Part shown: one piece after another, positions 30,945 through 48,043 of the stretch
How positions within the stretch are numbered: the first letter of the stretch is position 1
Layout: each line of letters begins with the position of its first letter
Assembly: GCA_017464425.1 (NCBI GenBank)
Contig: JAFUDX010000012.1
Span: 139,861-203,860 of the forward strand
Direction of reading: 5' to 3'
Length of the DNA: 64,000 bases
DNA from: Treponema sp.
Lineage (GTDB): Bacteria > Spirochaetota > Spirochaetia > Treponematales > Treponemataceae
Program-made: the position numbers and the translations under genes
Notes under the pieces: model-generated
What the model was told of the DNA's origin: nothing
Databases searched by the model: none
The model's input: only the letters and a program-made list of their open reading frames with translations

Positions 30945-31385
30945 ATGTTGGAACGCAAACCTTTATTGCATAAACTCTCTATTGGAATCTGCACGCTGTT
31001 TGGGGTGAGCATTCCATTTACGGGGTGTATTAATGATGTCTATGGACCAGCCGAAGTCTACGGACCTCCAGATCCAACTCTGTACGAGGCTTCCGAGTTA
31101 TATGGCAAGGTCACTGCAAAAAATGACGGTACAAATTTACCGGCAATAAAGGTGACCGTTCTTTTGGACGGAAAGGAGATTGCTTCTACAACGACATATG
31201 CAAACGGCTCTTATTATTTTTCGCTTTCAACAGGAAAATTTACTGCAAATACGACTTATACAATACAATTTGAAGATGTGGATGGGGCGACTAACGGCTC
31301 TTATGAGACATTTTCTGATTCGGTAACTTTGGAATCTCTTTCAGTAAGCACGAGAAAGGATGCGCAGTTGGTCGTGGTACAATGA
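30945..31385 (+). CDS. Radical-SAM-associated small lipoprotein (carboxypeptidase-regulatory-like beta-sandwich), copy 1
   Basis: Lipobox 'IPFTGCIN'. 'LYGKVTAKNDGTNLPAIKVTVLLDGKEIASTTTYANGSYYF' is CarboxypepD_reg-like. Its stop overlaps the radical SAM start by 4 nt. Confidence 0.6.
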   Translation: MLERKPLLHKLSIGICTLFGVSIPFTGCINDVYGPAEVYGPPDPTLYEASELYGKVTAKNDGTNLPAIKVTVLLDGKEIASTTTYANGSYYFSLSTGKFTANTTYTIQFEDVDGATNGSYETFSDSVTLESLSVSTRKDAQLVVVQ

Positions 31386-32488
31386 AAAGCCTTTCTCTTC
31401 TTGAAATTTTAAAACGCGAACTGTTTCGGCGGTATCGTATTTCTGAAACCAGACGCCATGACTTGTACCATCTTTTTTGGGAATGTACGCTTCGGTGTAA
31501 TTTCAATTGTCGTCACTGTGGTTCAGATTGCCTTGCTGAAAGTTCCGTAAAAGATATGCCGCTTGCAGATTTCTTAAATGCATTGGATAAAATCAAGCGT
31601 AAGCGAAAAACAAATCGAAAACTTATGGTGGCAATTATTGGAGGCGAGCCATTGCTTCGTTCTGATTTGGAACAGGCGGGGAGGGCGATTCGTGAGCTTG
31701 GTTATAACTGGGGAATCGTAACGAACGGATTTTTGCTTACTCCAGAGCGGTTTAATTCTCTGGTTGCAGCAGGATTAAGCACGATAAGCATTAGTCTTGA
31801 CGGATTAGAAAAAGAGCATGCTTATCTTCGGCAAAATGAAAAATCTTTTGAAAAGGCATGCCGTGCAATAGATTTATGCGTTTCTTTTCAGCGGGATTTT
31901 CCCCGTATGCTCGTGTATGATGTGATTACTTGTGTGCATCACGGAAATCTTTCCATTCTGCCAGCTTTGCGTGATTTCCTGATTGAAAAGGGGGTGATTG
32001 CATGGCGCATCTTTTCTATCTTTCCGAGCGGTCGGGCTTCTCTTGGTGATTTGGCTTTGACACCCTCAGAATATCGTGAGCTACTTGATTTTATTGTGGA
32101 AACTCGGCAGTACAAAACATCGGACGGAAAATCAATACACCTGCAGTATTCATGCGAAGGCTATCTTGGAACATATGAGCAAAAGGTACGGGATAGTTTT
32201 TTCTTCTGTCGTGGGGGAATCAATGTGGGCTCAATTATGTGCGATGGCTCAATTTCTGCCTGTCTGAGTGTACGGAGCTGTGCGTTCATTCAGGGGAACA
32301 TTTACAAAGACGATTTCATGGATGTGTGGAACAATCGCTTTGAGAATATGCGGAATCGTTCGTGGGCAAAGGTGGGAATATGTGAGCACTGCAAGAACTG
32401 GCGGTGGTGCGAGGGAAACGGACTTCACCTTCATCAAGATGACCACTCGGAATGTGTTCATTGTAATCTCAATCTGATTGAAGCATGA
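31382..32488 (+). CDS. Radical SAM/SPASM-domain enzyme, copy 1
   Basis: 'CTLRCNFNCRHCGSDC' (CxxxCxxC), with 'GGEPLL' and a Cys-rich C-terminus 'CEHCKNWRWCEGNG...SECVHC' (SPASM-like). No signal peptide. Confidence 0.8.
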   Translation: MKSLSLLEILKRELFRRYRISETRRHDLYHLFWECTLRCNFNCRHCGSDCLAESSVKDMPLADFLNALDKIKRKRKTNRKLMVAIIGGEPLLRSDLEQAGRAIRELGYNWGIVTNGFLLTPERFNSLVAAGLSTISISLDGLEKEHAYLRQNEKSFEKACRAIDLCVSFQRDFPRMLVYDVITCVHHGNLSILPALRDFLIEKGVIAWRIFSIFPSGRASLGDLALTPSEYRELLDFIVETRQYKTSDGKSIHLQYSCEGYLGTYEQKVRDSFFFCRGGINVGSIMCDGSISACLSVRSCAFIQGNIYKDDFMDVWNNRFENMRNRSWAKVGICEHCKNWRWCEGNGLHLHQDDHSECVHCNLNLIEA

Positions 32489-32635: not shown

Positions 32636-33973
32636 ATGGATAAAAATCTTAACAATGAAACGGAAAAGCGGCTTGGCTTGAACGGCTTGTTTGTGGTTCT
32701 CACCCTGCTTGTTTTGTACGGTATTTCTTGCACGGCTATAAAATCCTGGCAGATATACACGGATGAATTCTTTGGGGTGATAGAACTGGGGCTGTGCTCG
32801 CTGGTTGTGTCTGCCCTTTGGATTTTCATGTACTGGTTTTTGGACAGAATTAAGCATGAAAGCCTTAAAATGACCGTGCTCACCTTCTTTTTGGGTGTCG
32901 TTGCGTATCTTTCTGGCAAAGGTGTTCTTGAGTGGATTATCGGCACCGAAGTTTCGGTGCTCATGGAAAACATTTGGCTACCTGTCGTTTCATTTTTCCT
33001 TGTCTTTACCTTTATCGTCGTTAAGTTGCGCTCTTTTGACGAACTGGTTGATTCCTTTATTTATGGCGGATTTTTGGGAACGGGTATTGCATTTGCTTCG
33101 TGCATGACGGAATTTGTTCACTATACCAGCCTTGACGGTCAGTTTGTGATTATCGAATTGATTACGCGCATTTCTGTGCATGCGGCAGTCTGTTCGCTTG
33201 CAGGATTTTTGATTCATCAGGCACTTCTAAAGAAAAAAATTCTCCGATTGATTCTTTCTGTCGTACTCATGACGCTGCTTTTTACCATTGATTATTGCGT
33301 TGAGCAGATTTTCTTAAAAAACATTGAGCTTGTGGGAATCACGATTCTTCCCGTTCTTGTTTCGGTTGTTTTCGCGGCTCTTCTTGTCGCTGTCGTCGTA
33401 CTGCTTATCCATCGGATTTTAAAAAGGGGTGAGCTTGATGCAGCTTCCTTAACCTTACCAAGCAATCGTGCCACCGCAGTGATTATGGTGACTATGCTTG
33501 TCTTGTTCTTGGGATATGCCTTCTCGCTCCGCTATTCAGAATTCAAGACTGAAAAATTTGTCTCTTCAAACGGGGAGTGGTCGTTCAGTTTGCCAAAAGG
33601 CTTTTCTTGCGTGGAAGAACGCTCGAATACGAGTAGCTTTAACTTTGATATTCCGACTGGAAATGTATTCTACAAAAATAAAAACGGCTCAATAAATCTC
33701 TATCTGTTTTACGATGCCGACACGGATTTGGTTAAAATTATTGACCCTCTCAAACTCGGTTCAGAAAATGGGTGGGATATTTCTGTCGGCTTTAACAGTT
33801 TTGTCGCTGATGACTCGTATGGCAATCCCTTTATGCTGTATCAGAAAACATACAAAATCAAAAAAGGCGAGAATGAATTGCTGATTGATGTGTTCAGTGA
33901 CCAAAAAGAAGACGAAGAGGCAAATCGTGCCGTAAGAGTCTTAATCAGAACTTTGGAGGCAAAAAATGACTAG
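32636..33973 (+). CDS. Polytopic membrane protein, PrsW-like intramembrane protease fold, with C-terminal extracytoplasmic domain
   Basis: About 8 hydrophobic helices. 'FLDRIKHESLKMTVLTFFLG', 'YGGFLGTGIAFASCMTEFVHY' and 'RISVHAAV' line up with PrsW-family motifs but are partly divergent. The last 150 aa are soluble. Confidence 0.4.
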   Translation: MDKNLNNETEKRLGLNGLFVVLTLLVLYGISCTAIKSWQIYTDEFFGVIELGLCSLVVSALWIFMYWFLDRIKHESLKMTVLTFFLGVVAYLSGKGVLEWIIGTEVSVLMENIWLPVVSFFLVFTFIVVKLRSFDELVDSFIYGGFLGTGIAFASCMTEFVHYTSLDGQFVIIELITRISVHAAVCSLAGFLIHQALLKKKILRLILSVVLMTLLFTIDYCVEQIFLKNIELVGITILPVLVSVVFAALLVAVVVLLIHRILKRGELDAASLTLPSNRATAVIMVTMLVLFLGYAFSLRYSEFKTEKFVSSNGEWSFSLPKGFSCVEERSNTSSFNFDIPTGNVFYKNKNGSINLYLFYDADTDLVKIIDPLKLGSENGWDISVGFNSFVADDSYGNPFMLYQKTYKIKKGENELLIDVFSDQKEDEEANRAVRVLIRTLEAKND

Positions 33974-35483
33974 TTTTGGAACAAAAATGAAAAAAACGCT
34001 GTTTTTCGTTATTCTGACCCTCTCATGTATTCATCCCGTGCTTGCGCAAACGGAGCATGAGGGCGACTGGTTTTCTGCAGAAACGCTTTCTTCTGTCGTT
34101 AAATTGAGCAGCTTGCTTGTAACATATGATGTTGAGGGCTTGCCACGAGATTATACATACCATACAAAGGGGGGTGAACCTGATTTTGGAGATGCGCTTG
34201 TTGTGTCTGAGTCAGCAGAATTAACCCATGTGGGCACTGGTGTCATTATAACAAAAGAAGGCCTCATTATTTCTAATGCTCATGTCACACGGGCGTATAT
34301 TGAGCCGACCATACAAGAATTAAAGGGAAGCAAGGTCGGGCCAAACGGCAAGCCGATTACGCGCGTTATTATCAATCCGTTTACGAATATAATGTTTGTG
34401 GGCATGGTAGACGCTAATCGGCTTGAACGGGGGGATGATGCCCAAAAACTCAAGTATATTGCGTATATTCTTGAAGATGATGCCAATTACAATAATTCCC
34501 GTGACCGTGCCGTACTGCAGATTTTGTCTGAGTGCCACTTGGGAGCAAATGGCGTGCCTGTATCGGACGGAAAAGTTGAAAATCTAAACCTCCCGCATGC
34601 GAAATTCGGAAATCCGTTCAGAACATCATTTACAGACCGAAAAGTTCGGGCGATGGGATTTCCTGGCACGGGGGATCCAAACCGTTCTGCGCGGACATCT
34701 GGTGAGCTATTAGGTTACGAAGATGAAAAAACATCAAAAATCCTTCATACAAGCTATATTTCTGGCGGAAACAGCGGCGGCGGTCTTTTTCATAAAGACG
34801 CGCTGATTGGTATAAATACATGGGATAAATTGCAGAACAAAAGCCGTCCTGTTGCAATCGCTCAGCCAGTTACCTACTGGTTTGACTTGCTCTCAAAAGT
34901 AAAATGGATTTATCCGGGCATTGAGCTTCCTGATGGCTTGATGCTGGACTGGATTGATGATGATCCTGGCAAAGAAAACTATAAAGACGAAGTGCAGGTT
35001 TTCCTTAAATTCGTGTCTGATTCAAACAAAAATATTCCTGTCACGAGCGGAAAGATATATGCGCACCGTGTCGATACCGATATTGACGATGTGCTTACCT
35101 ATATTTCCGTTGCAAAAGATTTGAACGAAGGCATGATGATTTCTTATTGGCTGCAGTATTACACCGTTGATGAATTCGTAAAAGAATCTGGATACAACAA
35201 AGCCTATGTTGAGTTGTTCAAGTCTGTTACGGATGAAAAACAACTGCGTGATATGATTCGTCCTGAGCTTCGCCCGTATTTTGATGAATGGTATAACGGT
35301 ACATTCTATTGTAAGACCGTCGATTTAAAAGACGAAGACGGCAAAACAGCTATTTCTGTTCCGAAAGATTCAAAGACGCACATCACTTTTGTGAGTGATG
35401 ACGGAAATGCAAAGACCACATTTACATTTACAAGCGACTCTGACTATTTTCAAGGACGATTCACTATTCCTGTAAAGCAATAG
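33966..35483 (+). CDS. Secreted trypsin-like (S1/S1C) serine protease with unknown C-terminal domain
   Basis: GGAGG RBS and signal peptide '..FFVILTLSCIHPVLAQ'. The catalytic triad contexts are 'ISNAHV', 'DRAVLQI' and 'GGNSGGGLF'. It overlaps the upstream gene by 8 nt. Confidence 0.8.
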   Translation: MTSFGTKMKKTLFFVILTLSCIHPVLAQTEHEGDWFSAETLSSVVKLSSLLVTYDVEGLPRDYTYHTKGGEPDFGDALVVSESAELTHVGTGVIITKEGLIISNAHVTRAYIEPTIQELKGSKVGPNGKPITRVIINPFTNIMFVGMVDANRLERGDDAQKLKYIAYILEDDANYNNSRDRAVLQILSECHLGANGVPVSDGKVENLNLPHAKFGNPFRTSFTDRKVRAMGFPGTGDPNRSARTSGELLGYEDEKTSKILHTSYISGGNSGGGLFHKDALIGINTWDKLQNKSRPVAIAQPVTYWFDLLSKVKWIYPGIELPDGLMLDWIDDDPGKENYKDEVQVFLKFVSDSNKNIPVTSGKIYAHRVDTDIDDVLTYISVAKDLNEGMMISYWLQYYTVDEFVKESGYNKAYVELFKSVTDEKQLRDMIRPELRPYFDEWYNGTFYCKTVDLKDEDGKTAISVPKDSKTHITFVSDDGNAKTTFTFTSDSDYFQGRFTIPVKQ

Positions 35484-35490
35484 GAGCTTT

Positions 35491-37503
35491 ATGGTTCATA
35501 TGGTGCAAAAAATGGCACTCGATACAAGTTTTTGTTTTTGGGTGTCATTTTTCGTATTCTGCATATTTTTGCTTTTCTCGATTGCCACCGCTATACATCG
35601 CCTGGATATTGTAAAGCCATTGCGTGTCTTTGGAATAGGGCTTGCCGTATGTGATTTTATCATACTGATTCCGATTCTGCATGCAATCGGCGAGTGCGGA
35701 GATGGAGGCGTGGCTTCCGTTTCTTCGGCGATTATGAACATGGCGCAGCTGGTTACGCTTAATGTCGGCTATGACGCGCTGATAAAGGCTGCGGACGAAG
35801 CGCATGTGCTGGTGTTTTTTACGATACTCTGTGTGCTCACGCCTGCTGTCTGGGGAGGGGTGGTGCTCACTCTGTTTGAAAACCTTTCCAGCTATCTTGC
35901 CTATCAAATTTTTAGTCCGTTTATCCCGGTTTATTTTTTTTCCGAACTGAATGAAAACGCGCTCATGCTTGCACAGAGCATAAAAAACCAAAAAGGAAGG
36001 AAAACTCTCTGCATTTTTTGCGGCATTTCTGAAAATACCTCTCCCGAATTAAAAGAAGAAGTAAAGAATAACAGTTTCCTTTTACTAAAGCAAAGCGAAG
36101 CTTCGTGTATAAAAAATCCTAAAAATCAGCAGACATACTTTGAAATTTCTGAAAATCAAAATGAAAACCTTACGCATACCTGCACGCTTATTCACGCCTG
36201 TACAAAAGCATACGGGGACTGTGATTATTCAAACATGCGGATTTATCTTTTTTCTGAACAGGAAGAAGCACCCCTGCTTTTAAATTCGATTGACAAAAAA
36301 GGAATCCCCGTCATTCTTGTGGACCGTGACCGATTTGTCGCGCATGATTTGCTGTTTACGCATCCGCTCTATGAAGTGCTCAGTGACGGTTCAAAAACAA
36401 TTTCTGTGCTCATCGTGGGAGACGGGCGGCTTGCGAATGAGATTTTAAAAACAAGCGTCTGGTGCGGTCAGCTTGGAAAAAACTATCATTTAAAAATAAA
36501 TGCTATCACTAAAAATGCATCTCATTCTGAAAAAGTCATGCGTCTTGAATACCCGGAATTTTTTAACGGTGAGTATGATATTTCTTTTTTTGAGGCCGAC
36601 ATCACGACCTGTGATTTTGAGGCATGCCTTGACGAGCACTGTGCTGATGTAAATTATATCTGCGTCTGTTCTGAATCTGACGAAACAAACAGCCATGTCG
36701 CTCTCTATCTTCGTGCTTACTATTTCCGTAAAAATACAGATTCTTTTAAAAAGCCGTTTATTGCCGTTTGTGTGCGCGACAGCTCAAAAAATGCCATTAT
36801 TCCAGAATTTACCGCTGTTCCGCGCGAGAAATTGCTTTCAAAAAAAATACAGAGCGATTCCGATGCGGCTTTGAATTACAATTTGTTTGCGTTTGATTCA
36901 GACCGCTTGTTTTATTCATCGTATCTGATTGATTCCCCATTGGAGCGGATTGCGCTTAATGTGCATTTTGGCTATGAACTTTCATTTTCTGAAGGAACAG
37001 CGAGTTCCTCATTGGCTCGGAAAACCTATTACGCAAATGAAACTGGAATCCGTTCAAATCGTGCGAATGCGCTGCATATTCGGTATAAATTGTTCCTGTT
37101 AGGCTATGATTTAAAAGCACTTTCTTTTGTGAAGGGGGCGCAAGAATCAGAACGAGACGAACTCGCGCAAAAACTGCAAGCGGATATTGAAACGAATGTG
37201 CTCATGCTTTCTCTGATTGAGCATGACCGATGGAATGCGTTTATGCGGAGCGAAGGCTGGCGAAGCGCAAGTCTGGAACAGGCGAAAAAGGCGGGAACTC
37301 ACAAAATTACACGCGCAAAAATGCATGCCTGCTTGTGTACATGGGATGAACTTGATTCTTTTGCTGAATTTGACCCCAAATTTAAAGAATATGATGAAAT
37401 CATGATAAAAAATATTCCGTATTTGCTCGGACTGATTCCCCACAAGCTAAACATAAGCGGTGTGAACGCTGTGCTTGAAAAAAGGAGCAACTATGGAAAC
37501 TAA
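35491..37503 (+). CDS. Polytopic membrane protein with cytoplasmic Rossmann-like (GxGxxA) domain and RyR-like C-terminal domain
   Basis: The N-terminal 150 aa hold about 4-5 TM helices. 'ISVLIVGDGRLANEIL' is a dinucleotide-fold signature. 'LIEHDRWNAFMRSEGW...HACLCTWDELD' resembles bacterial RyR-domain repeats. The start is ambiguous (35491, 35500 or 35515). Confidence 0.5.
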   Translation: MVHMVQKMALDTSFCFWVSFFVFCIFLLFSIATAIHRLDIVKPLRVFGIGLAVCDFIILIPILHAIGECGDGGVASVSSAIMNMAQLVTLNVGYDALIKAADEAHVLVFFTILCVLTPAVWGGVVLTLFENLSSYLAYQIFSPFIPVYFFSELNENALMLAQSIKNQKGRKTLCIFCGISENTSPELKEEVKNNSFLLLKQSEASCIKNPKNQQTYFEISENQNENLTHTCTLIHACTKAYGDCDYSNMRIYLFSEQEEAPLLLNSIDKKGIPVILVDRDRFVAHDLLFTHPLYEVLSDGSKTISVLIVGDGRLANEILKTSVWCGQLGKNYHLKINAITKNASHSEKVMRLEYPEFFNGEYDISFFEADITTCDFEACLDEHCADVNYICVCSESDETNSHVALYLRAYYFRKNTDSFKKPFIAVCVRDSSKNAIIPEFTAVPREKLLSKKIQSDSDAALNYNLFAFDSDRLFYSSYLIDSPLERIALNVHFGYELSFSEGTASSSLARKTYYANETGIRSNRANALHIRYKLFLLGYDLKALSFVKGAQESERDELAQKLQADIETNVLMLSLIEHDRWNAFMRSEGWRSASLEQAKKAGTHKITRAKMHACLCTWDELDSFAEFDPKFKEYDEIMIKNIPYLLGLIPHKLNISGVNAVLEKRSNYGN

Positions 37504-39943
37504 GACAAGTCCTTCTGAGTACCGCTTTTATGCATTCATCAGCTACAGCCGCAAAAATGAAGTCTGGGCGAGTTGGCTTCAGAAAAAACTGGAGTTGTAC
37601 CGCCTTCCCTCTGTGCTTCAAAAGCAGTATCCTCAGATTCCAAAACCACTCAAAATCTTCCGCGACAAAACTGACATCAGCGTGGGCGGAACGGTGGAGC
37701 ATGCGCTTGCGAAAGAACTGCGGGTATCAAAAAAACTCATCGTTATCTGCTCGCCTGATTCGGCAAAATCCGACTATGTTGAGTATGAAATTGCAAGTTT
37801 TTTAAAGCTTGGGCACGATACAACGGATATTTTGCCGCTTGTCGTTGAGGGGGTACTATGTCCTGACGCAGAAAACCATTGCTACACGCCGTTGCTTACT
37901 AATTTAAATCTGAACGCAGCGGACGCGGTGCAGGAAGGCAAAAGCAATGCCTTTATCCGTTTGCTTGCAAGTCTCCTCGAAATAAATTATGACGATTTAA
38001 AGCAACGGGAGAAAAAGCGCAAGATTCGCCGAACTTTTTTTGCAGGAAGTGCCGCTTTTCTTTTTGCCTCGTTTTGTGCCGTTGCCCTGTGGTATTTTAG
38101 CCCACACACGCGCTATTATGCGGATTATGTGACCTATTGGGAAATTCCTGAAGGAATTAAAAATTCTGAACTCTCAAAAAACGAAGCTAAAAAACGCCCG
38201 TTCCACTATGAAATAACAACTCGGTGTGCGCGTCCCATTAAAATCGTGTATGCCAATTCATGTGGGCTTCCTCTTCCTCAGTGCGAAAGTGACCGGGAAA
38301 ATCGGGCGGGGACGACATTCTATTTTTATGAAAACCCGTATTTTCCCACAAAAAATAAACAGAAGTGGAATCTGTCTTCTGCACTTTGTACCTATTATGA
38401 CAATGATGTTGAGGCGGATATTCAAAAATCCTGTTCCATGCGAATCGAATACACGCGGGAAAGCGAAACGGTGCTTTCCGCAGATTTTTATTATGCCGCT
38501 GAGCACAATATCGAAAAAAGCCTTTTTAATGATGTGCTTTGTGAAACATGTCTTTCGTTTTCCGATGTCAGTGAAAGCGAAAATCCAGAATCAATCGACT
38601 TTAAAACACCTGAGCAGGAATTCTTTGAGAATGGGAGCGCGATGTATCGCTATAAGATCGAATGTGACGAAATGGGGCGGGCAAAGCGAGTCACCTTTTA
38701 CAACAAAAACAATCATCGCGTCTCGGATAAAAACGGCATATTCGGCTTTGAAAATGCGTATGATGAGCAAGACCGGCTTTCTGAGCAAACATATCTCTAT
38801 AGTGAATCGGAGCGGCTTTCCGTTTCTAAAAAGCGAATCGAATATGATTCATATTTGGTGAGTGGCGTATCTTTTTTTACGCAGACTGGCGAGCCTGTTC
38901 AAAATGTGGTTCGGGGCTATGCGTCTCTTAAAACAAAATGGAGCGAAGACGAAGACGGCCTGTTTTCCGTGCAAACTGAATTCTTTGATACGGCGGGAAC
39001 GGCGGTCAACGCACGGAAGCCGAATTGTGCTTCGATTCAATGTTTTTTTGATGAATCAGGATTTAAAACGCAGCAAGTGACTCAAAAAACAAAAAAACAG
39101 GCTGCAAATCTTCCCGCTTTTGTAAAACAATTCCACGAAAAGGAAAAAGAGCCAGTGCTAAAAACGGTTTTTACAAACAATGCAAATGGTCAGCCAGTCC
39201 AAATCCAAAAATTCACCGATGATGATTTAAAGAAAACGACACGCATTGTCTATGATAAAACAGGAATCATTAAGACGAAAGAACATTTTGATGCTCGTGA
39301 TGAACTAATGGCCACTGTGGACTATTCGTATCAAGAAAAAAGCCCTGCTACCTATCATCATATTTCAAAAAAACAAAAAAATATGACGGTGTTGTATGAC
39401 TATGATTCATGCGGACGCTTGCTCTCTCAATCCCAAATTTCTAGCGGAGAGATGCATACGGTCACAAAAATTGCATATTACGGCGGAAACAAGATTATCT
39501 GTCACTATAAAAACGGTGCCTACGCAAACAAAGACGGCTTTGCGGTCGCACAGTTCTCATACACAAACGACGGAATGTTGTATTTCGTGCAGTTTTTTGA
39601 TGAAACGGGCAATAAGGCGAGAAGTTCATTACTCCGTTTTTCGGAATATACCGCTTTGTACACGCCCAACAGCCTGCTTGTCTCTGAGTCTTTTAAAAAT
39701 CAAGACGGAATATTGACCGCTCCAAATGATTACGCGCTTTATGAGGCTCAGCAAAATCTTGAGGATACGATTCTTTTGCAGGGCGCGTATTTTATGGCAG
39801 ACAAAAGCCTTGCAAAACGAAAGAGAATCGTGCGCTTTGATTCTGAAAAAAATCAGAATGGGGAACTGAAAATCCGTTACTATGACGGCGCGGATACCAT
39901 TCTGAACGAAAAAATATATGCAAATGGCAGCATGGAGGATTAA
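37493..39943 (+). CDS. TIR-domain protein: N-terminal TIR, single TM helix, large extracytoplasmic beta-hairpin (YD-like) repeat region
   Basis: AGGAG RBS. TIR motifs are 'FYAFISYSRKN' and 'LIVICSPDSAKSDYVEYEI' (Glu retained). The TM helix is 'FFAGSAAFLFASFCAVALWYF'. Later come 'YDEQDRLSEQTY', 'YDKTGIIKTKEHF' and 'YDYDSCGRLLSQS'. The start overlaps the upstream stop by 11 nt. Confidence 0.8.
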   Translation: METKTSPSEYRFYAFISYSRKNEVWASWLQKKLELYRLPSVLQKQYPQIPKPLKIFRDKTDISVGGTVEHALAKELRVSKKLIVICSPDSAKSDYVEYEIASFLKLGHDTTDILPLVVEGVLCPDAENHCYTPLLTNLNLNAADAVQEGKSNAFIRLLASLLEINYDDLKQREKKRKIRRTFFAGSAAFLFASFCAVALWYFSPHTRYYADYVTYWEIPEGIKNSELSKNEAKKRPFHYEITTRCARPIKIVYANSCGLPLPQCESDRENRAGTTFYFYENPYFPTKNKQKWNLSSALCTYYDNDVEADIQKSCSMRIEYTRESETVLSADFYYAAEHNIEKSLFNDVLCETCLSFSDVSESENPESIDFKTPEQEFFENGSAMYRYKIECDEMGRAKRVTFYNKNNHRVSDKNGIFGFENAYDEQDRLSEQTYLYSESERLSVSKKRIEYDSYLVSGVSFFTQTGEPVQNVVRGYASLKTKWSEDEDGLFSVQTEFFDTAGTAVNARKPNCASIQCFFDESGFKTQQVTQKTKKQAANLPAFVKQFHEKEKEPVLKTVFTNNANGQPVQIQKFTDDDLKKTTRIVYDKTGIIKTKEHFDARDELMATVDYSYQEKSPATYHHISKKQKNMTVLYDYDSCGRLLSQSQISSGEMHTVTKIAYYGGNKIICHYKNGAYANKDGFAVAQFSYTNDGMLYFVQFFDETGNKARSSLLRFSEYTALYTPNSLLVSESFKNQDGILTAPNDYALYEAQQNLEDTILLQGAYFMADKSLAKRKRIVRFDSEKNQNGELKIRYYDGADTILNEKIYANGSMED

Positions 39944-39946
39944 TGT

Positions 39947-40597
39947 ATGAAAAAACTAATGTGTATGTGTGTGTTCATTTTGAGCCTGTCGCAGATTTTT
40001 TCAGAGGGACGGAGTTCTTTTGAAGAAAATCCAATCCGAAAAATAAAACTCGCAAAGGAACTTGCTGAATACGGCTATGAAACGGAATCGCCTGCCGCGC
40101 TTTTGGAAGCCGCCGAAATATTGGCAGAAGTGAATGTCCGAAAATCTGCGATAAAAGCTGTTCAAACGGGAACACCGTCAAAGGCAGCGGAAGAAAATCA
40201 GTTTTCTCTTGATGCAAAAACACTTTTTGCGGATGCGAAAGATTTTGCGGGCAATGACAAAACATACGCTGAATGGATAAAAAAGATTGAGCGCACTTTT
40301 TCTGGAAAGCGGGGAGCTGCGCGGGGGCCGTTGGCGGTGGAAGGCTTTGCCTACGGAAATGACGGAAGCGCATCATATACGATTTCATTTACAAACGGCG
40401 AGTCGGCTCAGATTTATGTTGCGGCTATGACAGGCTCAAATCTTGATGTCGATATTTATGATTCTGACGGAAAAAGTGTTGTGACTGGAAAAGGAAATGA
40501 CACGATACAGTTCGTTCCTGAAAACGCAAAGAGCTACACGATACAGGTAAAAAACCGCACGAGTTCTACGGTATCGTACACCCTGTACACCGATTAA
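39947..40597 (+). CDS. Secreted protein with C-terminal PPC (pre-peptidase C-terminal)-like domain
   Basis: Signal peptide 'MCMCVFILSLSQIFSEG'. 'YTISFTNGESAQIYVAAMTGSNLDVDIYDSDGKSV...SYTIQVKNRTSSTVSYTLY' fits the PPC pattern. Confidence 0.55.
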   Translation: MKKLMCMCVFILSLSQIFSEGRSSFEENPIRKIKLAKELAEYGYETESPAALLEAAEILAEVNVRKSAIKAVQTGTPSKAAEENQFSLDAKTLFADAKDFAGNDKTYAEWIKKIERTFSGKRGAARGPLAVEGFAYGNDGSASYTISFTNGESAQIYVAAMTGSNLDVDIYDSDGKSVVTGKGNDTIQFVPENAKSYTIQVKNRTSSTVSYTLYTD

Positions 40598-40609
40598 TGC
40601 GGAGACTTC

Positions 40610-43600
40610 ATGCGAAAAAGAGCCCTGCTTTTCTGCTTTTTCTTTGTATTTTGTTTATTCTCTCATTTTCAAACTGCACTGGCTGATTCTGCTGTTTCTT
40701 CTAATGCTGAATCAATTGAAAGCCTTGAACAAGAACTTGCAGAAATTCCAGAAACGGACTATGGGCGACGGCTAAGCATTTTGGGAAAACTGCTGACGCT
40801 GTACGGAACGAATGAAGCGAACGCATATCAGGCAGGCCCTTTCCTTGAAGAGGCAATATCCATTATGGAGCGATTTTTTGAGCCGACGAGCGATGTCATG
40901 GTTTCCATGTATCGGGGTGGAATTGAGATATTCGCAATGCTTCAAGACAGTAAAAAAACGCTCGTTTACTTTGAAAAATATGTGCACGCAACGGGAAGTG
41001 ATGAAATTGAATTCGGAAAAACTGAGGCTGCCATAAGTTTTTATTCGGTTGTCGGAATGGGGTATTATGAAAATGGAAAATACGATGATGCAATCCGCTA
41101 TTTCCAAAAATCAGCTTCAATTTGCGAGACAACGGGCGCAAAAGCAGACTGTGCAAAAAACTACAATAGTATTTCCGGGTGCTACAACTCAAAAACGGAC
41201 TATGAAAACGCGCTTTTGTATGGGCAGAAATCGTTGGCACTGTATCAAGAGCTATATGGAAAAAACACTCCGCAAACGCTTGAACCGTTGGTAAACATCG
41301 GAAATATCTATCTTGCAAAGGCTGATTTCAAAACGGCTTTGCAGTTGTATGAGCAGGCTCTTGATTTGCAGAAAAAAGGCGCAATCGAAGAAAATGCGAT
41401 TACCGCTTCTCTTTACAATAATATCGGGCTTGCATATGAAGATATGACGGACTATAAAAACGCGCTCCACTATCTTGAGAAATCACTCGAACTTAGAAAA
41501 AAACTCTTTGGCGAGGAGCATACAGAAGTTGCCGCATCATATTCGAATATCGGAATGGTCTACTATCAAAACGGAGATTTTGACCGTGCGCTATCGTATT
41601 TTTTTAAAGCACTTTCTCTGCGGGAAAAACTGTTTGCCGTACATCCTGAAACCGCCGCTTCCTATCAGAATGTTGCGCTTGTGTACAGCGAAAAAAATGA
41701 CTATGAAACGGCACTCACTTACTACGAAAAGGCACGGAATATGCTTGTCTCATTGGTCGGGGAAACGCATGAGAATGTCGCAATGGTCTACTCAAATATC
41801 TCTCGGTTATATCAAGAAAAAGATGATTATCAAAATGCTGTTTTCTATGGCGACAAAGCTCTTTCAATCAGAAAAACGATGTTTGGGGAAACGCATCCGC
41901 AGGTCGCCACATCATACATGAACAAAGGGCTTTTGTACCGAACATTTGGCGATTATGACAACGCGGTTTTTTATATAGAAAAAGCTCTGGCAGTGTATAC
42001 AGCGGTATATGGGGAGTGGAATCCGAATATCGCGACTGCATACAATAATCTTGGAGTCATTTTTGAGGACAAGGGGCAACTTGATACTGCATTGAACTAT
42101 TTCCAAAAAGCTCTTTCAATGCGAATTGATTTGTTTGGCGAGAATAACATAGTTGTTTCAATGTCATATCTTGGTATCGGGAATGTCTACGGCGCAAAAG
42201 GTGATTGTGATAACGCACTTTCATATTATGAGCGCGCACGAATCATTTGTGAACAGACTGTTGGAACAAAACATTCGCATACGGCTCTCGTCTACAACAA
42301 TATAGCGATGGTCTATCAGCAAAAAGAGAGCTATGGTGAGGCAATCCGTTCGTATAAAAAAGCACTCGATGTGTATCTTTCGATTTATGGTGAATCCCAC
42401 ACGATGACGGCTATGGCGTATTCTAATTTGGGTACGACCTACCGTGATAAAAAGGACTATGATATTGCCTTGCGGTATCTGAATAAGGCGAAAAGCATAC
42501 GGGAGCAGTTGCTTGGGGAAAATCACCCCGATACGGCAAGCGTGTATGTAGACATCGCTCTTGTCTGTGCGTCTAAAAACGACTACGAAAATGCGTTTTT
42601 GTATAATGAAAAGGCACTTGCCGTTTACGAAAAAACATTCGGCTCTGAGCATCCGCATACCGCGCTCATTTATTTTAATATGGGACTCTACTATCATATT
42701 AAAAAAAATACCGAACGCGCGTCTGAATATTGGGCAAAATCCGTGCATGCTTCAAAAAACATATCGAATTATGTCGATACCATTGAGCGAATGAAAAAAA
42801 TCATCAGATTTTCAACAGACGATGGACTTGTTAAGAGCGCGTTGGAAACGGGAATTGAGGCAACCGAGCGGGCTCGACTTGATTTGACTTCGATAAAGAC
42901 AGACCTTTTGCAGCAAAGTTTGCCATTGTATTATCAGGGCGTTGCGTTTGAGGCGGCACACAACAATGTTGAAAAGGCATTTGAATATTCAGAATCACTC
43001 AGAAACAGGGGATTTTTGGATCAGCTTGGTTTTGAAACGGCTCTCAAACTTGACGGTATTACAGAAAAAGAGCGAACTGATGTCCGTACCTTTTCACAGG
43101 AAATTGCGCAGGCACGAAAAGAAATTGCAACGCAAAACGAGCTTGGCGAAAAGAGAAGCAATGAAAAACTGGTGAGGGCGGGCGAACGGCTTGCAAAAGC
43201 GGAGCATGAACTGGAAATTCTGGACTCACGCCTTTCTGAACGGATTCCCGCCTATGCCCAGCTTCGGTCTCCTAAAACGGCAACGGCAAAAGATACGCAA
43301 GCATGGTGTGGCATACAGCGTGTTATCCTCGAATACATTGTGTGGCAGAATATGTCATATTGTTTTGTCATACAGTCAAATGGAATTCACATTGTTCCCA
43401 TTGATTCAGAGTATGATTATGCATTGGCTGCTACGGAACTCAGAAACGCCGTGTTCAAAAAACGACAGAGCCTTTTTTCGGGAAAGAAGGCGAGCATACA
43501 AAAATACCGTTCTGAATTGTACGCAAAACTCATTGCGCCTGTCCGTCCGTATTTTACCGATGGCACAAAACGTATTCTGATTGTTCCTGACGGTGCGCTT

Positions 43601-44416
43601 TCTTCAATTCCTTTTGATATTCTGGGAAATGAGCACGAAGGCGTGCTTTGTGAAAAATATGCGCTCAGTTTTTCACCATCTGTTTCGGTCAGTATGCTTC
43701 GTGAGAAAAAAACGGCTTCTTCTTTTAAAATGCTTGGAATCGGAAACGCAGTCTATGAGTCAGCAGAGCCTGCCACGCAAGGAAAAACGAGCGCAGTCAG
43801 TGACTACTACAAAAAAACGGTCAGAAGTTGGGAGAATATTCCTGGTACGGCTCTTGAACTTAAAAACATCAAGAACATGATTCGTAAAAACGAGCATATT
43901 TCCGTTTACGAAGGAAAAAATTCTACGGAAGCACTGGTAAAAAAACTGTCACATTCTGGAGATTTGGCAAACTACTCTCAGATTTTGTTTGCCTGTCATG
44001 GATATTTTAATTCTGACGAGCCGGAATTCTCTTCACTTGTGTTTTCAGAAGTGTCGGGAACGGTCAGTGCTTCTGATGATGACGGGTATCTTACGGTTTC
44101 TGAACTTGCCGTCCTCAATATGAATGCCGATTTTCTCAATCTTTCTGCCTGCCAGACGGGGCTTTCCGAGCAGCGGCAGGGCGATGGTATGGTGGGGCTC
44201 ACCCGTTCCTGTATTGTAGCGGGCGCAAATAATGTGGGGGTTACGCTTTGGGAGGTTGATGATAATGCGACCTGTGAATTCCAGCGAATTTTTTATACTC
44301 ACATAAAAAACGGCTATTCGTATGAATCGGCATACCAATCAGCAAAACAAGAAATGAAAAACAGCGAGCAATGGTCTGACCCGGTGTATTGGGCTGCATT
44401 TGTTCTCTATGAATAA
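40610..44416 (+). CDS. Exported TPR-repeat / CHAT-domain (caspase-like) protease, paralogue 1
   Basis: Signal-peptide-like 'MRKRALLFCFFFVFCLFSHFQTALA'. About 15 TPR_12-type units ('SYxNIGxVYxxxGDYDxALxYxEKAL'). The CHAT His/Cys contexts are 'ILFACHGYF' and 'LNLSACQTG'. Confidence 0.85.
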   Translation: MRKRALLFCFFFVFCLFSHFQTALADSAVSSNAESIESLEQELAEIPETDYGRRLSILGKLLTLYGTNEANAYQAGPFLEEAISIMERFFEPTSDVMVSMYRGGIEIFAMLQDSKKTLVYFEKYVHATGSDEIEFGKTEAAISFYSVVGMGYYENGKYDDAIRYFQKSASICETTGAKADCAKNYNSISGCYNSKTDYENALLYGQKSLALYQELYGKNTPQTLEPLVNIGNIYLAKADFKTALQLYEQALDLQKKGAIEENAITASLYNNIGLAYEDMTDYKNALHYLEKSLELRKKLFGEEHTEVAASYSNIGMVYYQNGDFDRALSYFFKALSLREKLFAVHPETAASYQNVALVYSEKNDYETALTYYEKARNMLVSLVGETHENVAMVYSNISRLYQEKDDYQNAVFYGDKALSIRKTMFGETHPQVATSYMNKGLLYRTFGDYDNAVFYIEKALAVYTAVYGEWNPNIATAYNNLGVIFEDKGQLDTALNYFQKALSMRIDLFGENNIVVSMSYLGIGNVYGAKGDCDNALSYYERARIICEQTVGTKHSHTALVYNNIAMVYQQKESYGEAIRSYKKALDVYLSIYGESHTMTAMAYSNLGTTYRDKKDYDIALRYLNKAKSIREQLLGENHPDTASVYVDIALVCASKNDYENAFLYNEKALAVYEKTFGSEHPHTALIYFNMGLYYHIKKNTERASEYWAKSVHASKNISNYVDTIERMKKIIRFSTDDGLVKSALETGIEATERARLDLTSIKTDLLQQSLPLYYQGVAFEAAHNNVEKAFEYSESLRNRGFLDQLGFETALKLDGITEKERTDVRTFSQEIAQARKEIATQNELGEKRSNEKLVRAGERLAKAEHELEILDSRLSERIPAYAQLRSPKTATAKDTQAWCGIQRVILEYIVWQNMSYCFVIQSNGIHIVPIDSEYDYALAATELRNAVFKKRQSLFSGKKASIQKYRSELYAKLIAPVRPYFTDGTKRILIVPDGALSSIPFDILGNEHEGVLCEKYALSFSPSVSVSMLREKKTASSFKMLGIGNAVYESAEPATQGKTSAVSDYYKKTVRSWENIPGTALELKNIKNMIRKNEHISVYEGKNSTEALVKKLSHSGDLANYSQILFACHGYFNSDEPEFSSLVFSEVSGTVSASDDDGYLTVSELAVLNMNADFLNLSACQTGLSEQRQGDGMVGLTRSCIVAGANNVGVTLWEVDDNATCEFQRIFYTHIKNGYSYESAYQSAKQEMKNSEQWSDPVYWAAFVLYE

Positions 44417-44443
44417 CAAAATAACGAATGATGGAGGTGTGAT

Positions 44444-47400
44444 ATGCGTAAGTTCTTATGGTTTCTGTATTTCTGTTGTATTGTTTTCCCTGTGGCAACA
44501 ACTCAAGAATCCCGCGTCGAAATTCCATCGGAAGTGCTGCAGCGATTGGTGTACGCAAAGGACAATGGGACGGAGTGCAGTCAGGAATTCCTTGAGAATC
44601 TGGAAAAAGACCTTTTAAACTATAAGGAATCTCAAGTGTATGATACGGCGCGTCAGTTCTTGGCCATTGCCTATTACAGAAAGGGAACGGCATATCATCA
44701 AAACAAGGACTACGACCACGCACTTATTTATGAAAAAAAAGCTTTGGATATTTTTTATGAGCTCTTTGGAGACCAGTATGCCGATACAATAACACTGTAT
44801 AATAATGTCGGAATGATTTACTTCGACAAAAAAGACTATACTTCTGCCCTTACATATCTGAAATACTCACTTCAGGTGCGCAATCAATATATCGAAAAAA
44901 AAGACAGCACGACGATTTCTCTCTATACAACGATTGGCGATGCGTACAAAGAAAAGGGCGAGTATAAAAACGCGCTTCCGTATTATAAAGAGGCTCTTGA
45001 ACTCAAAAAGTCCCTGCTCGGAGAAATGAATGCTTCGACCGCAAATGGCTATAGATATGTGGGAAATATGTATGATTGGACTGCGCAGTATGACCTTGCA
45101 TTGGAATATTATGAAAAAGCTTTGGAAATTCGTAAGAAGGTATCGGGGGAACAGCATGCGCAGACTGAATATCTCTATGATGTAATTGGACTGGTGTATT
45201 TTCACAAGGGAATGTACGATTCTGCGGTGACATGGTTTCAGTGTGCGGCGGATACTATTGAATCTAAGGAAAAAATAACGAATTCGGCTCCATATAATAA
45301 TCTGGGGCTTGTGTATTATGCAAAAGGTGACTATGACGCGGCAATCGCTTGGTATGGAAAATCCTTAAAAATCTTATTGGAGACAGCGGGAGAAAAAGAA
45401 ATTGTAGCGACGTTGTATGACAATATCGGTGCTGCCTACCGCGCGAAGGGCGACATTGATTCAGCGTTGGAATACTGTGTTAAAGCGAATGAATTATATG
45501 TGGCTACACTCGGTGAAAACAATACAGACACTGCGATTTCATGCAACAATACGGGAACGCTATACGACAGATTAAAAGATTATGAGAACGCCACAAAGTA
45601 TTATCAGCGTGCACTGAATATCTTTTATGCGTTGAAGCAATATGAGCATCCGCAGCTTGCCGTTACATTCATGAATGTGGGAAGTGCCTATTCCAAACTG
45701 GGAGAATATGATTTGGCATTTGATTTTCTTAGCCGTGCGCTAAAAATCGAAGAAGCAAAACTCGGTCAAAATCATCCGTATACCATAAGCACATACAATG
45801 ATTTCGGCGATCTCTATTACAAAAAAGGCGACTATGAAACGGCAAAAACCTATTATGAGAAAGTGATTTCATGCTCACGAAACGGCCTTTCATACAAGCA
45901 AAATATCCAAGCGGTAAAAGATATGCTGTTTCAGTGCCAAAAAATCAGTGATCCCGCGTTTATTCGTTCTGCCCTTGCGCTTGGAATCGACACTGCGGAG
46001 CGGGCTCGCCTTGACATGACGGGAATCAAAGATGACATCATGGCCCTTTCTCAACCTATTTACTATTACGGTGTGCATTTTGAGGCAGAGCAGGGAAACA
46101 GAGCGCAGGCGTTCGCCTATTCAGAATCGCTTCGGAACAGAGGTTTTCTTGACCAAATCGGCACGGAAACGGCATTGCGGCTTGACGGCGTTACAGACTC
46201 AGAGCGCGAAAAAATTCATACGCTTTCTGCCCGCATTATTTCCGCGCAAAAAGAAATTGAAGCGCAAAATCAAAAAGCAATTTCCAGTCGGGATACGGAG
46301 CGGCTTATACAGGCGGGAAATGCGCTTGTCGCGGCAGAAAAGGAACTTGCGCAATTAGATGAAAGTATCGGAAAGCGCGTGCCTGCCTATGCTCAGCTCA
46401 GAAACCCTCAGCCTGTCAGCATTGATGCCGCGCAAGCCTGGTGCACGGGTGGAAAAACGGTACTTGAATATGTCTTGTATGAGGATGCAAACGAAAAAAA
46501 TGCTGTGGCAAAATCATACTGCATTGTGTTGTCCCAAAAAGACATTCAGATTGTCATGCTTGATTCTGACTATGATTACGCAACTGCCGTCTTGAATCTA
46601 CGGACTGCGGTCGTTGAAAAACAGCAGAGCCTTTCTTCAGGAAGCAGAACTTCGCTCCAAAAATATCGTTCGGCGTTGTTTGACCGGCTGATACAGCCTG
46701 TCCTGCACTATATTCCTGCGGATACCACGCAGCTCGTCATCGTCCCAGACGGAGAGCTTTCGGCCCTTCCATTCGATATATTGGGGAACAGTGAATTTGG
46801 TGTTCTCGGCGAAAAATACTCGCTCACATTTTCCCCCTCACTTTCAATCAGCATTTTAAAAGAAAACATCGACAAAAAGCTGTTCCGTATTCTTGGTTTG
46901 GGAAATGCCATGTATACCGCATTGGACGGCCCCTCTTCCCCATCAACGAAAAAATCTGTGAGTTCGGTGGCGGATTATTATAAAAAGAATCTTATTTCGT
47001 GGGAAAATCTTTCTGGGACTAAGCAGGAGTTGTATAATCTAAAAAATAAGATTTTTAAGGGGGAAAAAATTGCCATCTTTGAGCAAGAAAAGGCAAGTGA
47101 ACGGACGATGAAAGAACTTTCCCAATCTGGGGAACTGGCATTGTACAGTCAGATACTCATCGCCTGTCACGGCTATTTTAATGCCGCAAAACCTGAACTT
47201 TCGGCATTGGTTTTTTCTGAAGTCTCGCATGACGGCGAAAAATCGGGTGAAGACGGCTACCTTACTATTGATGAAATCTCGCTCTTAAAAATGAATGCTG
47301 AATTCTTGAATCTCTCGGCCTGCCAGACGGGGCTTTCGGCTCTCAAAAAGGGTGACGGTATGCTCGGACTTACCCGTTCCTGCATTGTCGCAGGTGCACA

Positions 47401-47587
47401 TACGGTGGGCGTTACGCTTTGGGAAGTGCATGATATGGCAACCTGTGTGTTTCAGGAATATCTGTACGGCTTCATAAAAAACGGCGTGCCATACGCAACG
47501 GCATATCAGAATGCAAAACAAAAAATGAAAGAATCCGAAGAGTGGTCTAATCCTGTGTATTGGGCGGCTTTTGTTCTGTATGAGTAG
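44444..47587 (+). CDS. Exported TPR-repeat / CHAT-domain (caspase-like) protease, paralogue 2
   Basis: Signal-peptide-like 'MRKFLWFLYFCCIVFPVA', then a TPR array. The CHAT contexts are 'ILIACHGYF' and 'LNLSACQTG'. The C-terminal half is closely similar to paralogue 1. Confidence 0.85.
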   Translation: MRKFLWFLYFCCIVFPVATTQESRVEIPSEVLQRLVYAKDNGTECSQEFLENLEKDLLNYKESQVYDTARQFLAIAYYRKGTAYHQNKDYDHALIYEKKALDIFYELFGDQYADTITLYNNVGMIYFDKKDYTSALTYLKYSLQVRNQYIEKKDSTTISLYTTIGDAYKEKGEYKNALPYYKEALELKKSLLGEMNASTANGYRYVGNMYDWTAQYDLALEYYEKALEIRKKVSGEQHAQTEYLYDVIGLVYFHKGMYDSAVTWFQCAADTIESKEKITNSAPYNNLGLVYYAKGDYDAAIAWYGKSLKILLETAGEKEIVATLYDNIGAAYRAKGDIDSALEYCVKANELYVATLGENNTDTAISCNNTGTLYDRLKDYENATKYYQRALNIFYALKQYEHPQLAVTFMNVGSAYSKLGEYDLAFDFLSRALKIEEAKLGQNHPYTISTYNDFGDLYYKKGDYETAKTYYEKVISCSRNGLSYKQNIQAVKDMLFQCQKISDPAFIRSALALGIDTAERARLDMTGIKDDIMALSQPIYYYGVHFEAEQGNRAQAFAYSESLRNRGFLDQIGTETALRLDGVTDSEREKIHTLSARIISAQKEIEAQNQKAISSRDTERLIQAGNALVAAEKELAQLDESIGKRVPAYAQLRNPQPVSIDAAQAWCTGGKTVLEYVLYEDANEKNAVAKSYCIVLSQKDIQIVMLDSDYDYATAVLNLRTAVVEKQQSLSSGSRTSLQKYRSALFDRLIQPVLHYIPADTTQLVIVPDGELSALPFDILGNSEFGVLGEKYSLTFSPSLSISILKENIDKKLFRILGLGNAMYTALDGPSSPSTKKSVSSVADYYKKNLISWENLSGTKQELYNLKNKIFKGEKIAIFEQEKASERTMKELSQSGELALYSQILIACHGYFNAAKPELSALVFSEVSHDGEKSGEDGYLTIDEISLLKMNAEFLNLSACQTGLSALKKGDGMLGLTRSCIVAGAHTVGVTLWEVHDMATCVFQEYLYGFIKNGVPYATAYQNAKQKMKESEEWSNPVYWAAFVLYE

Positions 47588-47602: not shown

Positions 47603-48043
47603 ATGAAATTGTATCACAAACTGTGTGCGCTTGCGCTTTCACTTTTGGGGCTTTCCGCGTATGCTCAGGAATGGGAGCGCCCAAAACGCACAAAAATCGT
47701 TGAGGGCTTTGAACTGGAAGATTCGTTTCTTACCGTGTATGGCGGTCGGAGAAACTACATAACGACAAAATTATATGGTTCTGTCTATGACAAAGATAAA
47801 AAACTTCCGCTAAAAGGCATAAAAATTGCGCTGTATTCGGGAACGCATGAAATGGCTTCTGCTTACTCGCAAGAAAACGGTGATTATTACTTTGATGATT
47901 TTACGGTGTGGGCGGGGCTCAGAGTTGAGTATACGATGATTGTCTCTGACCCAAACGGTGAATTTGCGCCGCTCCGTCGGGAACTCTGTTTTGAGCTCGA
48001 TGAAGTAACGCGTGAAGAAATCGTTGTCTTGGAGCGAAAATGA
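47603..48043 (+). CDS. Radical-SAM-associated small secreted protein (carboxypeptidase-regulatory-like), copy 2
   Basis: Signal peptide 'LALSLLGLSAYAQE'. 'LYGSVYDKDKKLPLKGIKIALYSG...NGDYYF' parallels copy 1. Its stop overlaps the radical SAM start by 4 nt. Confidence 0.6.
   Translation: MKLYHKLCALALSLLGLSAYAQEWERPKRTKIVEGFELEDSFLTVYGGRRNYITTKLYGSVYDKDKKLPLKGIKIALYSGTHEMASAYSQENGDYYFDDFTVWAGLRVEYTMIVSDPNGEFAPLRRELCFELDEVTREEIVVLERK

Follow-up and report, generated by a model that had tools for sequence, protein, structure and literature searches.

Could a bacterial membrane protein that carries a ryanodine receptor (RyR) domain be the receiver of a nucleotide signal made by the TIR protein whose gene overlaps its own? 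The question is raised by a 64,000-nucleotide (nt) stretch of a Treponema sp. genome (contig JAFUDX010000012.1, positions 139,861 to 203,860; the whole stretch is termed the window, and coordinates without a locus name are its own, on the + strand). In it the gene for a 670-residue membrane protein, here called A, runs into the gene for an 816-residue single-pass membrane protein with a TIR domain. An initial annotation made from the sequence had proposed that A could be a ligand-gated membrane effector for a TIR-made nucleotide. Comparative genomics and published RyR biochemistry now support that proposal, with the emphasis moved to the RyR domain. At a probability of roughly 0.55, the pair is a Thoeris-like TIR signalling module with a new kind of effector, A being its signal-sensing membrane receiver.

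Overlapping frames of A and its TIR partner

Gene A (35491..37503), a putative signal-sensing effector assigned from its open reading frame (ORF), encodes a membrane region followed by a tandem RCK-like pair and an RyR domain. Its product ends ...SNYGN and its TAA stop is at 37501-37503. The TIR gene, assigned from its ORF, Pfam matches and hydropathy and encoding the putative sensor and signal synthase, is at 37493..39943. Its ATG (37493-37495) is preceded, with a 5-nt spacer, by a Shine-Dalgarno-like AGGAG (37483..37487) within the 3′ end of gene A, and the 11 nt from that ATG to the stop of gene A (37493..37503) are shared by the two frames, pointing to translational coupling. These coordinates confirm what the initial annotation had read from the junction. 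The ORF list puts the start of the TIR gene at a TTG, 37475, as against the ATG at 37493 adopted here. The choice is made because the orthologous pair in Treponema sp. RGIG4505 (locus L001, 68% identity) has the identical 11-nt overlap and its TIR protein begins MESDYRFYAF. Clostridial loci with the pair have 1-4-nt overlaps or small gaps, and across all loci the two frames mostly overlap by 1-11 nt or abut. A scan for promoters and terminators gave results at chance level.

A protein family linked to TIR genes

Taken as a single sequence, A gave nothing useful in Pfam, NCBIfam or PADLOC: no PADLOC model matches it, and there is no Pfam RyR or TrkA_N match at E<0.1. Its relatives are more informative. 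A word-indexed protein search yielded 39, and the conservation counts given below are over 37 family members, the window protein included. A Pfam scan of these 37 finds TrkA_N in 17 (best 2.8e-8) and RyR in two (2e-5). An exhaustive profile search shows how large the family is: at E<=1e-30 it takes in 2392 clusters, and at E<=1e-10 it takes in 5919. Over 2000 clusters are distinguished at 50% identity, with a concentration in Treponema of the gut and rumen and in Clostridia. Viral contigs gave no relative of A. Ten unusually long members were searched as candidate A-TIR fusion proteins, and none has a TIR domain. The AlphaFold2 model of A, built with the alignment (predicted local distance difference test, pLDDT, 89.8; predicted template modelling score, pTM, 0.82), has four parts: the membrane helices, a Rossmann-like domain (147-290), a Rossmann domain (303-475) and a helical C-terminal region (483-645).

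When one genome per species was scanned with 21 closer A sequences, 38 loci were obtained, their hosts being rumen and gut Treponema, Oscillospiraceae, Acutalibacteraceae, Christensenellaceae, Lachnospiraceae and others; a metagenome scan added 19. TIR genes were sought with a hidden Markov model (HMM) iterated from the window protein and run on called ORFs and on six-frame translations, and representative partners were confirmed with Pfam. Seven loci end too soon after A, leaving 50 that are informative. The TIR gene is the next gene in 30, is separated from A by one small gene in two and lies further off, on the same strand within 7 kilobases (kb), in six; a same-strand TIR gene within 7 kb is thus present in 38 of 50, and none is found within 10 kb in the remaining 12. 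(The 50 loci are not 50 independent events, because some are near-duplicates.) At 29 loci the TIR domain starts no more than 160 nt after the stop of A. The order is effector A, then TIR, and a single A gene may be accompanied by one to three divergent TIR genes (L001, L006, L009, L012, L016, L035-37). The linkage extends over Treponema and no fewer than six families of Clostridia, in the phyla Spirochaetota and Bacillota; the adjacency seen by the initial annotation in one genome is recurrent. TIR signalling systems are present in about 8% of genomes according to the text of a recent survey (10.64898/2025.12.03.692087), and chance is excluded as the source of the A-TIR adjacency because it reaches 60% against that figure.

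The RyR domain and its pocket

The initial annotation had noticed that the tail of A resembles RyR repeats. While this fails as a single-sequence Pfam match, it stands at the profile level. Profiles, conservation and alignment place an RyR domain of the PF02026 type at residues 566-645 (37186..37425), with H578, W581, K605, H612, D628 and D635 as the residues of interest. The A-family profile finds RyR domains in the PDB (6uhi at 1.6e-10, 4n05 at 3.1e-5 and 3nrt at 5e-5, the latter two being the Bacteroides thetaiotaomicron 'putative ryanodine receptor'), and an iterated HMM seeded on a stand-alone RyR protein (Pfam RyR 2.7e-23) finds the window protein at 7e-18.

Two phage protein groups, described in two 2026 preprints, give this match its meaning. 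RyDEP, whose ligand residues are H75, W78, H100 and D117, cleaves 2′/3′ cyclic ADP-ribose (cADPR), and relatives of it sequester the molecule (PMC13232231). RyR Tad binds 3′cADPR, 2′cADPR and cADPR via H129/W132, K147/H154 and K170/D171 (10.64898/2026.06.04.730250). Both numberings correspond to the spacing H-x2-W-x21-H-x16-D (PMC13232231; 10.64898/2026.06.04.730250), which is exact in the B. thetaiotaomicron domain and in those A members that lack insertions (for example P0035). The pocket residues of A map onto H75/W78/H100/D117 of RyDEP and onto H129/W132, K147/H154 and D171 of RyR Tad. H578 is present in 37/37 members, W581 and H612 in 36/37 each, and K605, which lies seven residues before H612, in 31/37. 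D635 sits in a 'KEYD' string identical to that of the B. thetaiotaomicron RyR protein.

The stretch just before this domain, residues 483-545 ('LERIALNVHFGY...SNRANALHIRYKL'; 36937..37125), may be a degenerate first RyR repeat, to judge by residue pattern and hhalign. H492 (32/37), Y495 (33/37) and H529 (35/37) parallel the H-x2-W...H pattern of the second repeat, and hhalign aligns the two repeats in register, weakly (E=0.046).

Seven A loci also contain stand-alone RyR genes for proteins of 85-110 residues (L006:6929-7240, L007:6056-6388, L008:11690-11974, L009:6476-6742, L016:6496-6750, L040:680-937 and L052:772-1059). In most of them Thr replaces the second ligand His ('KKTTPC'/'KQTPHL'), and they could be host-encoded signal buffers. 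The window has no stand-alone RyR gene.

The tandem RCK-like pair

Between the membrane region and the C-terminal region are two Rossmann/RCK-like domains. In the first, residues 147-290 (35929..36360; from the strand and helix pattern of the model and from Foldseek), the glycine loop is replaced by 'FSELNE', in which S151 is conserved in 37/37 members, E152 in 36/37 and E155 in 35/37. The second, residues 303-475 (36397..36915; from Pfam TrkA_N in relatives and from Foldseek), has the loop G310-x-G312-x2-A315. This loop, G310-D-G312-R-L-A315 in the window protein with G310 invariant (37/37), is the GxGxxA dinucleotide-binding signature that the initial annotation had picked out. The two domains are taken to be a tandem RCK pair because Foldseek of the model against the PDB ranks TrkA (4g65_B, 3.5e-5), Slo1/BK (from 1.8e-4) and the CASTOR gating ring (2.2e-2) on top. 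In every characterised case known to us, a tandem RCK module links the binding of a ligand to a transport domain in the membrane. That the central domain might instead be a housekeeping dehydrogenase fold with its own conserved neighbourhood had been considered from the outset. The fold found is tandem RCK/TrkA-like, and at the loci no recurrent housekeeping neighbour of A was found, be it a K+ transporter, a dehydrogenase pathway or other metabolic gene.

An acid at the end of Rossmann β2 is the classical ribose-binding residue. At this position in domain 2 the window protein has T340 (36508-36510), the residue being Asp in 33/37 relatives. The RyR domain is a stronger candidate for the signal sensor than the Rossmann domain, because RyR domains bind or cleave 2′/3′cADPR, the ligand residues are near-invariant in the A family and the RCK site of the window protein, with its T340, looks weakened.

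The membrane region

The membrane region extends over residues 12-141 (35524..35913; hydropathy and models), with a probable N-out, C-in topology. The initial annotation was right about its presence, but its count of four to five transmembrane helices gives way to three long hydrophobic helices (12-37, 41-66 and 107-141, from model and hydropathy) plus one short helix-loop-helix (73-88/94-103), which the model places between the second and third of them. P118 is present in 37/37 members and G122 in 24/37. The membrane part modelled alone has a pLDDT of 90.3.

Between the two short helices the alignment reveals a conserved loop motif, Q86-x2-[TS]-L-[DN]-x-[DG]-[YF]94 (35746..35772), with Q in 23/37 members, L in 27/37, D in 25/37 and Y/F in 37/37. 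By eye this loop is like the TLESW/TLDDW P-loop filter of bacterial Nav/Cav channels; sequence and fold searches do not support homology between them. A has no TVGYG-type filter or other K+ selectivity sequence, and no Pfam ion-channel match (Ion_trans, Ion_trans_2). A P-loop channel identity for the domain was tried and found no support, the profile search of PDB sequences being empty and Foldseek with the transmembrane-only model giving nothing below E=2.4. The order of the helices, the likely N-out/C-in topology and the conserved loop nevertheless recall, in the models, a pore module that has no sequence or fold match in the PDB, and the membrane domain may be such a module.

The TIR partners

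The TIR domain of the window protein covers residues 10-180 (37520..38032), as judged from Pfam and from alignment with ThsB. The Pfam matches are to TIR_2 (7.3e-13, residues 15-125) and ThsB_TIR (1.3e-6). E99 (37787-37789) is the candidate for the catalytic Glu; the string around it, 'SDYVEYEI', is aligned with 'RRWVRYEI' in Bacillus cereus ThsB. In an alignment with ThsB reference TIRs, 28 of the 29 partner TIR domains retain this Glu, the exception being L036_3. (This secondary copy, L036:6185-7009, has Arg at the position; it adjoins an intact TIR gene and is probably a non-catalytic paralogue.)

A single transmembrane helix (38033..38101; hydropathy and sequence reading) follows. The TIR domain is taken to be cytoplasmic because KQREKKRKIRR precedes the helix, in keeping with the positive-inside rule. 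Beyond the helix is an extracytoplasmic region of about 610 residues (38102..39940), presumed to be a sensor; it matches neither Pfam nor any PDB sequence, and tandem DNA repeats are absent from it. This architecture, TIR-transmembrane helix-large ectodomain, is shared by the partners in Treponema and in some Clostridia. Many other Clostridia have TIR joined to a BspA-type LRR (LRR_5) in a protein of about 550 residues with no transmembrane helix, at L010 the TIR is joined to NACHT/NPHP3_N and TPR, and at L012 it is C-terminal. The partners range from 550 to 1500 residues, and their non-TIR parts are unrelated to each other.

A model and its alternatives

In the model favoured here the variable TIR protein would be both sensor and signal synthase, as a single-pass receptor in the window and as a TIR-LRR or TIR-NACHT-TPR protein elsewhere. 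On a trigger, its cytoplasmic TIR domain would use NAD+ to make a signal derived from ADP-ribose, for instance a cADPR isomer, and this would be bound by the RyR domain of A, the dinucleotide site of the RCK pair being possibly a second site. The RCK ring would then pass the change to the N-terminal membrane domain, alteration of ion flux or of membrane integrity would ensue, and the cell would arrest or die. Three points here are inferred: activation of A by the signal, a toxic or output role for its membrane domain and a function of the system in defence, the last of these by analogy only.

Several features weigh against this model. Twelve of the 50 informative loci, mostly those of distant A-family members, have no TIR gene within 10 kb. 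PADLOC (in its 2023 form, on the small sample made up of the window and the locus neighbours) matches only TIR and caspase/CHAT proteins; there is no defence-island signal around A, because neighbours other than these match no PADLOC defence family. In the RyR pocket the canonical Asp position is ambiguous, D628 having the canonical spacing but being present in 12/37 members and D635 being present in 34/37. The membrane part has no counterpart among solved pores or toxins: the profile finds no match among PDB sequences, and the best Foldseek match of the transmembrane-only model is at E=2.4, with CNG/SthK appearing only at E 4.5-9.5. TIR proteins with their own sensor-like domains occur in single-gene systems, Avs for example, where the TIR is an NAD+-depleting effector, and the partners of A are likewise large and equipped with sensor-like domains. 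Lastly, A could degrade the signal instead of responding to it, because its pocket has the His/Asp dyad that is catalytic in RyDEP.

These last points lead to a different division of labour. The TIR proteins might each be sensor and effector in one, killing by NAD+ depletion as TIR-STAND/Avs proteins do, with A a modulator that sets the threshold or resets the system, its RyR domain sequestering or hydrolysing stray (c)ADPR or its RCK pair reading NAD(H)/ADPR. The fusion of partner TIRs to LRR, NACHT-TPR and large ectodomains is as in single-protein systems, the RyDEP glycosidase uses the same His/Asp pocket while other RyR proteins are sponges (PMC13232231), and the stand-alone RyR genes of 85-110 residues at seven loci would fit a buffering role. 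A sponge or a hydrolase, however, needs neither a conserved membrane domain, with its invariant P118, nor a tandem RCK pair, and of eight phage RyR proteins that have the conserved residues, six bind without cleaving (PMC13232231). A also remains constant against TIRs that vary and multiply, as a Thoeris effector does, and a modulator is accordingly rather unlikely. Unlikely too is a purpose other than anti-phage defence, in which an envelope or extracellular cue, perhaps proteolytic, would act on the TIR ectodomain and be relayed by a nucleotide messenger to ion flux via A, for physiology or for interbacterial or host interaction. What speaks for such a transmembrane signalling device is that everything in the Treponema operon save A and the TIR domain is extracytoplasmic (the trypsin-like protease, two TPR-CHAT proteins and a 216-residue protein, each with an N-terminus like a signal peptide, and the 610-residue ectodomain), that no known defence genes are nearby and that viral contigs yielded no copy of A. 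The clostridial TIR-LRR partners, with no transmembrane helix, and the TIR-NACHT-TPR partners are cytoplasmic, so an external cue is not general, and the characterised bacterial TIR signalling systems described in the survey's text are all anti-phage (10.64898/2025.12.03.692087). The disfavoured notion that A is a housekeeping cation transporter or channel regulated by its RCK domains, with a functionally unrelated TIR neighbour, would accommodate the TrkA and BK gating-ring matches and the 12 loci without a TIR gene. It is very improbable, given an adjacency kept across phyla with frames overlapping or abutting while TIR architectures change, the contrast between 60% adjacency and the roughly 8% of genomes that carry TIR signalling systems in the survey's text (10.64898/2025.12.03.692087), and the lack in A of both a K+ selectivity sequence and a Pfam ion-channel match.

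The model of A as signal-sensing receiver has a bolder form, which is put forward tentatively. A would be a bacterial ion channel gated through its RyR repeats by a TIR-made cADPR-type nucleotide, and so a prokaryotic counterpart, possibly the evolutionary source, of the animal cADPR-ryanodine receptor axis. It would be driven by proteins shaped like Toll-like receptors (ectodomain, one transmembrane helix, cytoplasmic TIR) that report extracytoplasmic events. Were this the case, phages would have obtained their RyR sponges and glycosidases by capturing the sensor domain of the host effector.

Neighbouring genes

In the window the pair is part of a tightly spaced same-strand run, a 15-kb cluster (32636-47587). 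Upstream, a gene for a protein with eight transmembrane helices (32636-33973) overlaps by 8 nt that for an exported trypsin-like protease (33966-35483), and 7 nt separate the protease gene from gene A. Downstream of the TIR gene come genes for an exported 216-residue protein (39947-40597) and for two TPR-CHAT (caspase-like) proteins with signal-peptide-like N-termini (40610-44416 and 44444-47587). The upstream two-gene set is found only at Treponema loci, being kept in L001, L002, L009 and L016. The downstream set of 216-residue and TPR-CHAT proteins is kept in L001, L004, L005 and L016, and the extended set recurs only in Treponema. In this operon the products beside A and TIR all look extracytoplasmic. 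A set with an extracellular protease and a TIR receptor recalls protease-cascade-to-Toll logic, though this is pure speculation. The cluster is bracketed by two radical-SAM/SPASM paralogues (31382-32488, 368 residues, and 48040-49149, 369 residues), which may be the sign of an insertion between duplicated genes or of a locus for peptide maturation.

Other neighbours are seen elsewhere. At nine clostridial loci (L010, L017, L018, L019, L020, L021, L024, L027 and L028) a conserved trio adjoins A (for instance L021:2502-9548 and L027:234-3314), encoding a Tubulin_2 (PF13809) protein of 1000-1250 residues, a membrane protein of about 680 residues and a protein of about 1500 residues that has no Pfam or PADLOC match; L019 and L020 have the trio and no TIR gene. 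In five clostridial loci a CitMHS-like transporter gene follows the TIR-LRR gene. On a distant branch (L033-L037; for instance L035:8975-12537) two adjacent genes with 4-nt overlaps encode RyR-bearing proteins, one A-like (about 630-690 residues) and one of about 515 residues; one or two genes for TIR proteins with a transmembrane helix lie 2.7-4 kb downstream, with a collagen-repeat protein gene in between.

Comparison with known systems

If the model holds, an effector class composed of a membrane domain, an RCK pair and an RyR domain would be added to TIR-based immunity, and host-encoded bacterial RyR domains would have a physiological role. The interest lies in an RyR nucleotide pocket on a host membrane protein that is genetically tied to TIR enzymes, the pairing being found across two phyla. 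To our knowledge, only two roles have so far been seen for the RyR domain in the context of TIR signals, that of a counter-defence tool of phages and that of an orphan nucleotide site on the ryanodine receptors of animals. The receptor-like TIR partners suggest that bacterial TIR signalling may be triggerable from outside the cytoplasm. Gut and rumen Treponema and Clostridia are, as far as we know, under-sampled in defence-system screens.

The natural comparison is with Thoeris. As set out in the survey's text (Yirmiya et al., bioRxiv), types I-XI combine a ThsB TIR with effectors ThsA and ThsC-ThsL, and 18 more are predicted (10.64898/2025.12.03.692087). The effectors are SIR2-SLOG, TM-Macro (TM, transmembrane), SLOG, caspase, DUF2270, DUF6650, SLATT, CMP hydrolase, TIR-SLOG, ion channel and HIT (10.64898/2025.12.03.692087). 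The A loci share with them a TIR gene with the catalytic Glu adjoining a constant partner that has a nucleotide-binding domain, membrane helices in that partner (as in types II, V, VI, VII and X of the survey's text), often several TIR genes per locus, and the order effector to TIR. They differ in the sensor, RyR plus tandem RCK instead of SLOG, Macro, DUF2270, DUF6650, SLATT and the others that the text names. They also differ in the TIR partners, of 550-1500 residues with LRR, NACHT-TPR or transmembrane helix and ectodomain, ThsB being short, and in their setting, without defence-island context and in gut or rumen Treponema and Clostridia. Neither Pfam nor PADLOC matches SLOG, SIR2 or Macro, the effector domains of types I, II and III, on A or on its 36 relatives. 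The terms 'RyR' and 'TrkA' are absent from the survey's text and from the examined part of its Table S1, though its 18 unnamed predicted effectors might include A (10.64898/2025.12.03.692087). The view that the domain combination is not that of canonical Thoeris is to this extent upheld. A search of the literature for host-encoded proteins that connect RyR, TrkA or RCK to TIR or Thoeris turned up nothing beyond the two phage RyR papers.

Type X Thoeris is like the A-TIR pair in placing a TIR gene beside a membrane protein (ThsK) predicted to conduct ions. The effector is a 246-residue protein with several transmembrane helices, and its gene (L059:3247-3987) immediately precedes the type X TIR gene in B. 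cereus. Unlike A, ThsK has neither an RCK nor an RyR domain, and a relationship between the two was considered and set aside, hhalign of the A family against L059:3247-3987 giving a probability of 0.45%. The RCK-gated transporters and channels TrkA/TrkH, KtrAB, MthK, BK/Slo1 and CASTOR have the tandem RCK pair after a membrane domain and supply the best structural matches of A; A differs from them in having no TVGYG filter or Ion_trans match, a membrane domain that matches nothing and an extra RyR module.

RyDEP and RyR Tad share with A the PF02026 fold and the H-x2-W...H...D pocket, which in them binds 2′cADPR, 3′cADPR and cADPR, but they are encoded by phages and act in counter-defence, as a glycosidase and as sponges, and they are small and soluble (PMC13232231; 10.64898/2026.06.04.730250). 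A is host-encoded, membrane-anchored and fused to RCK domains, and it is linked to the producer of the signal instead of opposing it. With the animal ryanodine receptor (Repeat12) A has in common an RyR repeat on a membrane protein and a link to the TIR/SARM1 enzyme family that makes cADPR-type molecules. There is no homology beyond the repeat, size and architecture are entirely different, and ion conduction by A is putative. A is nonetheless a small, tractable protein with which to ask whether RyR repeats relay cADPR-type signals to a membrane output, a long-standing question for the animal receptor. Set among these systems, the A-TIR pair looks like an undescribed variant of the Thoeris kind that falls outside every named type.

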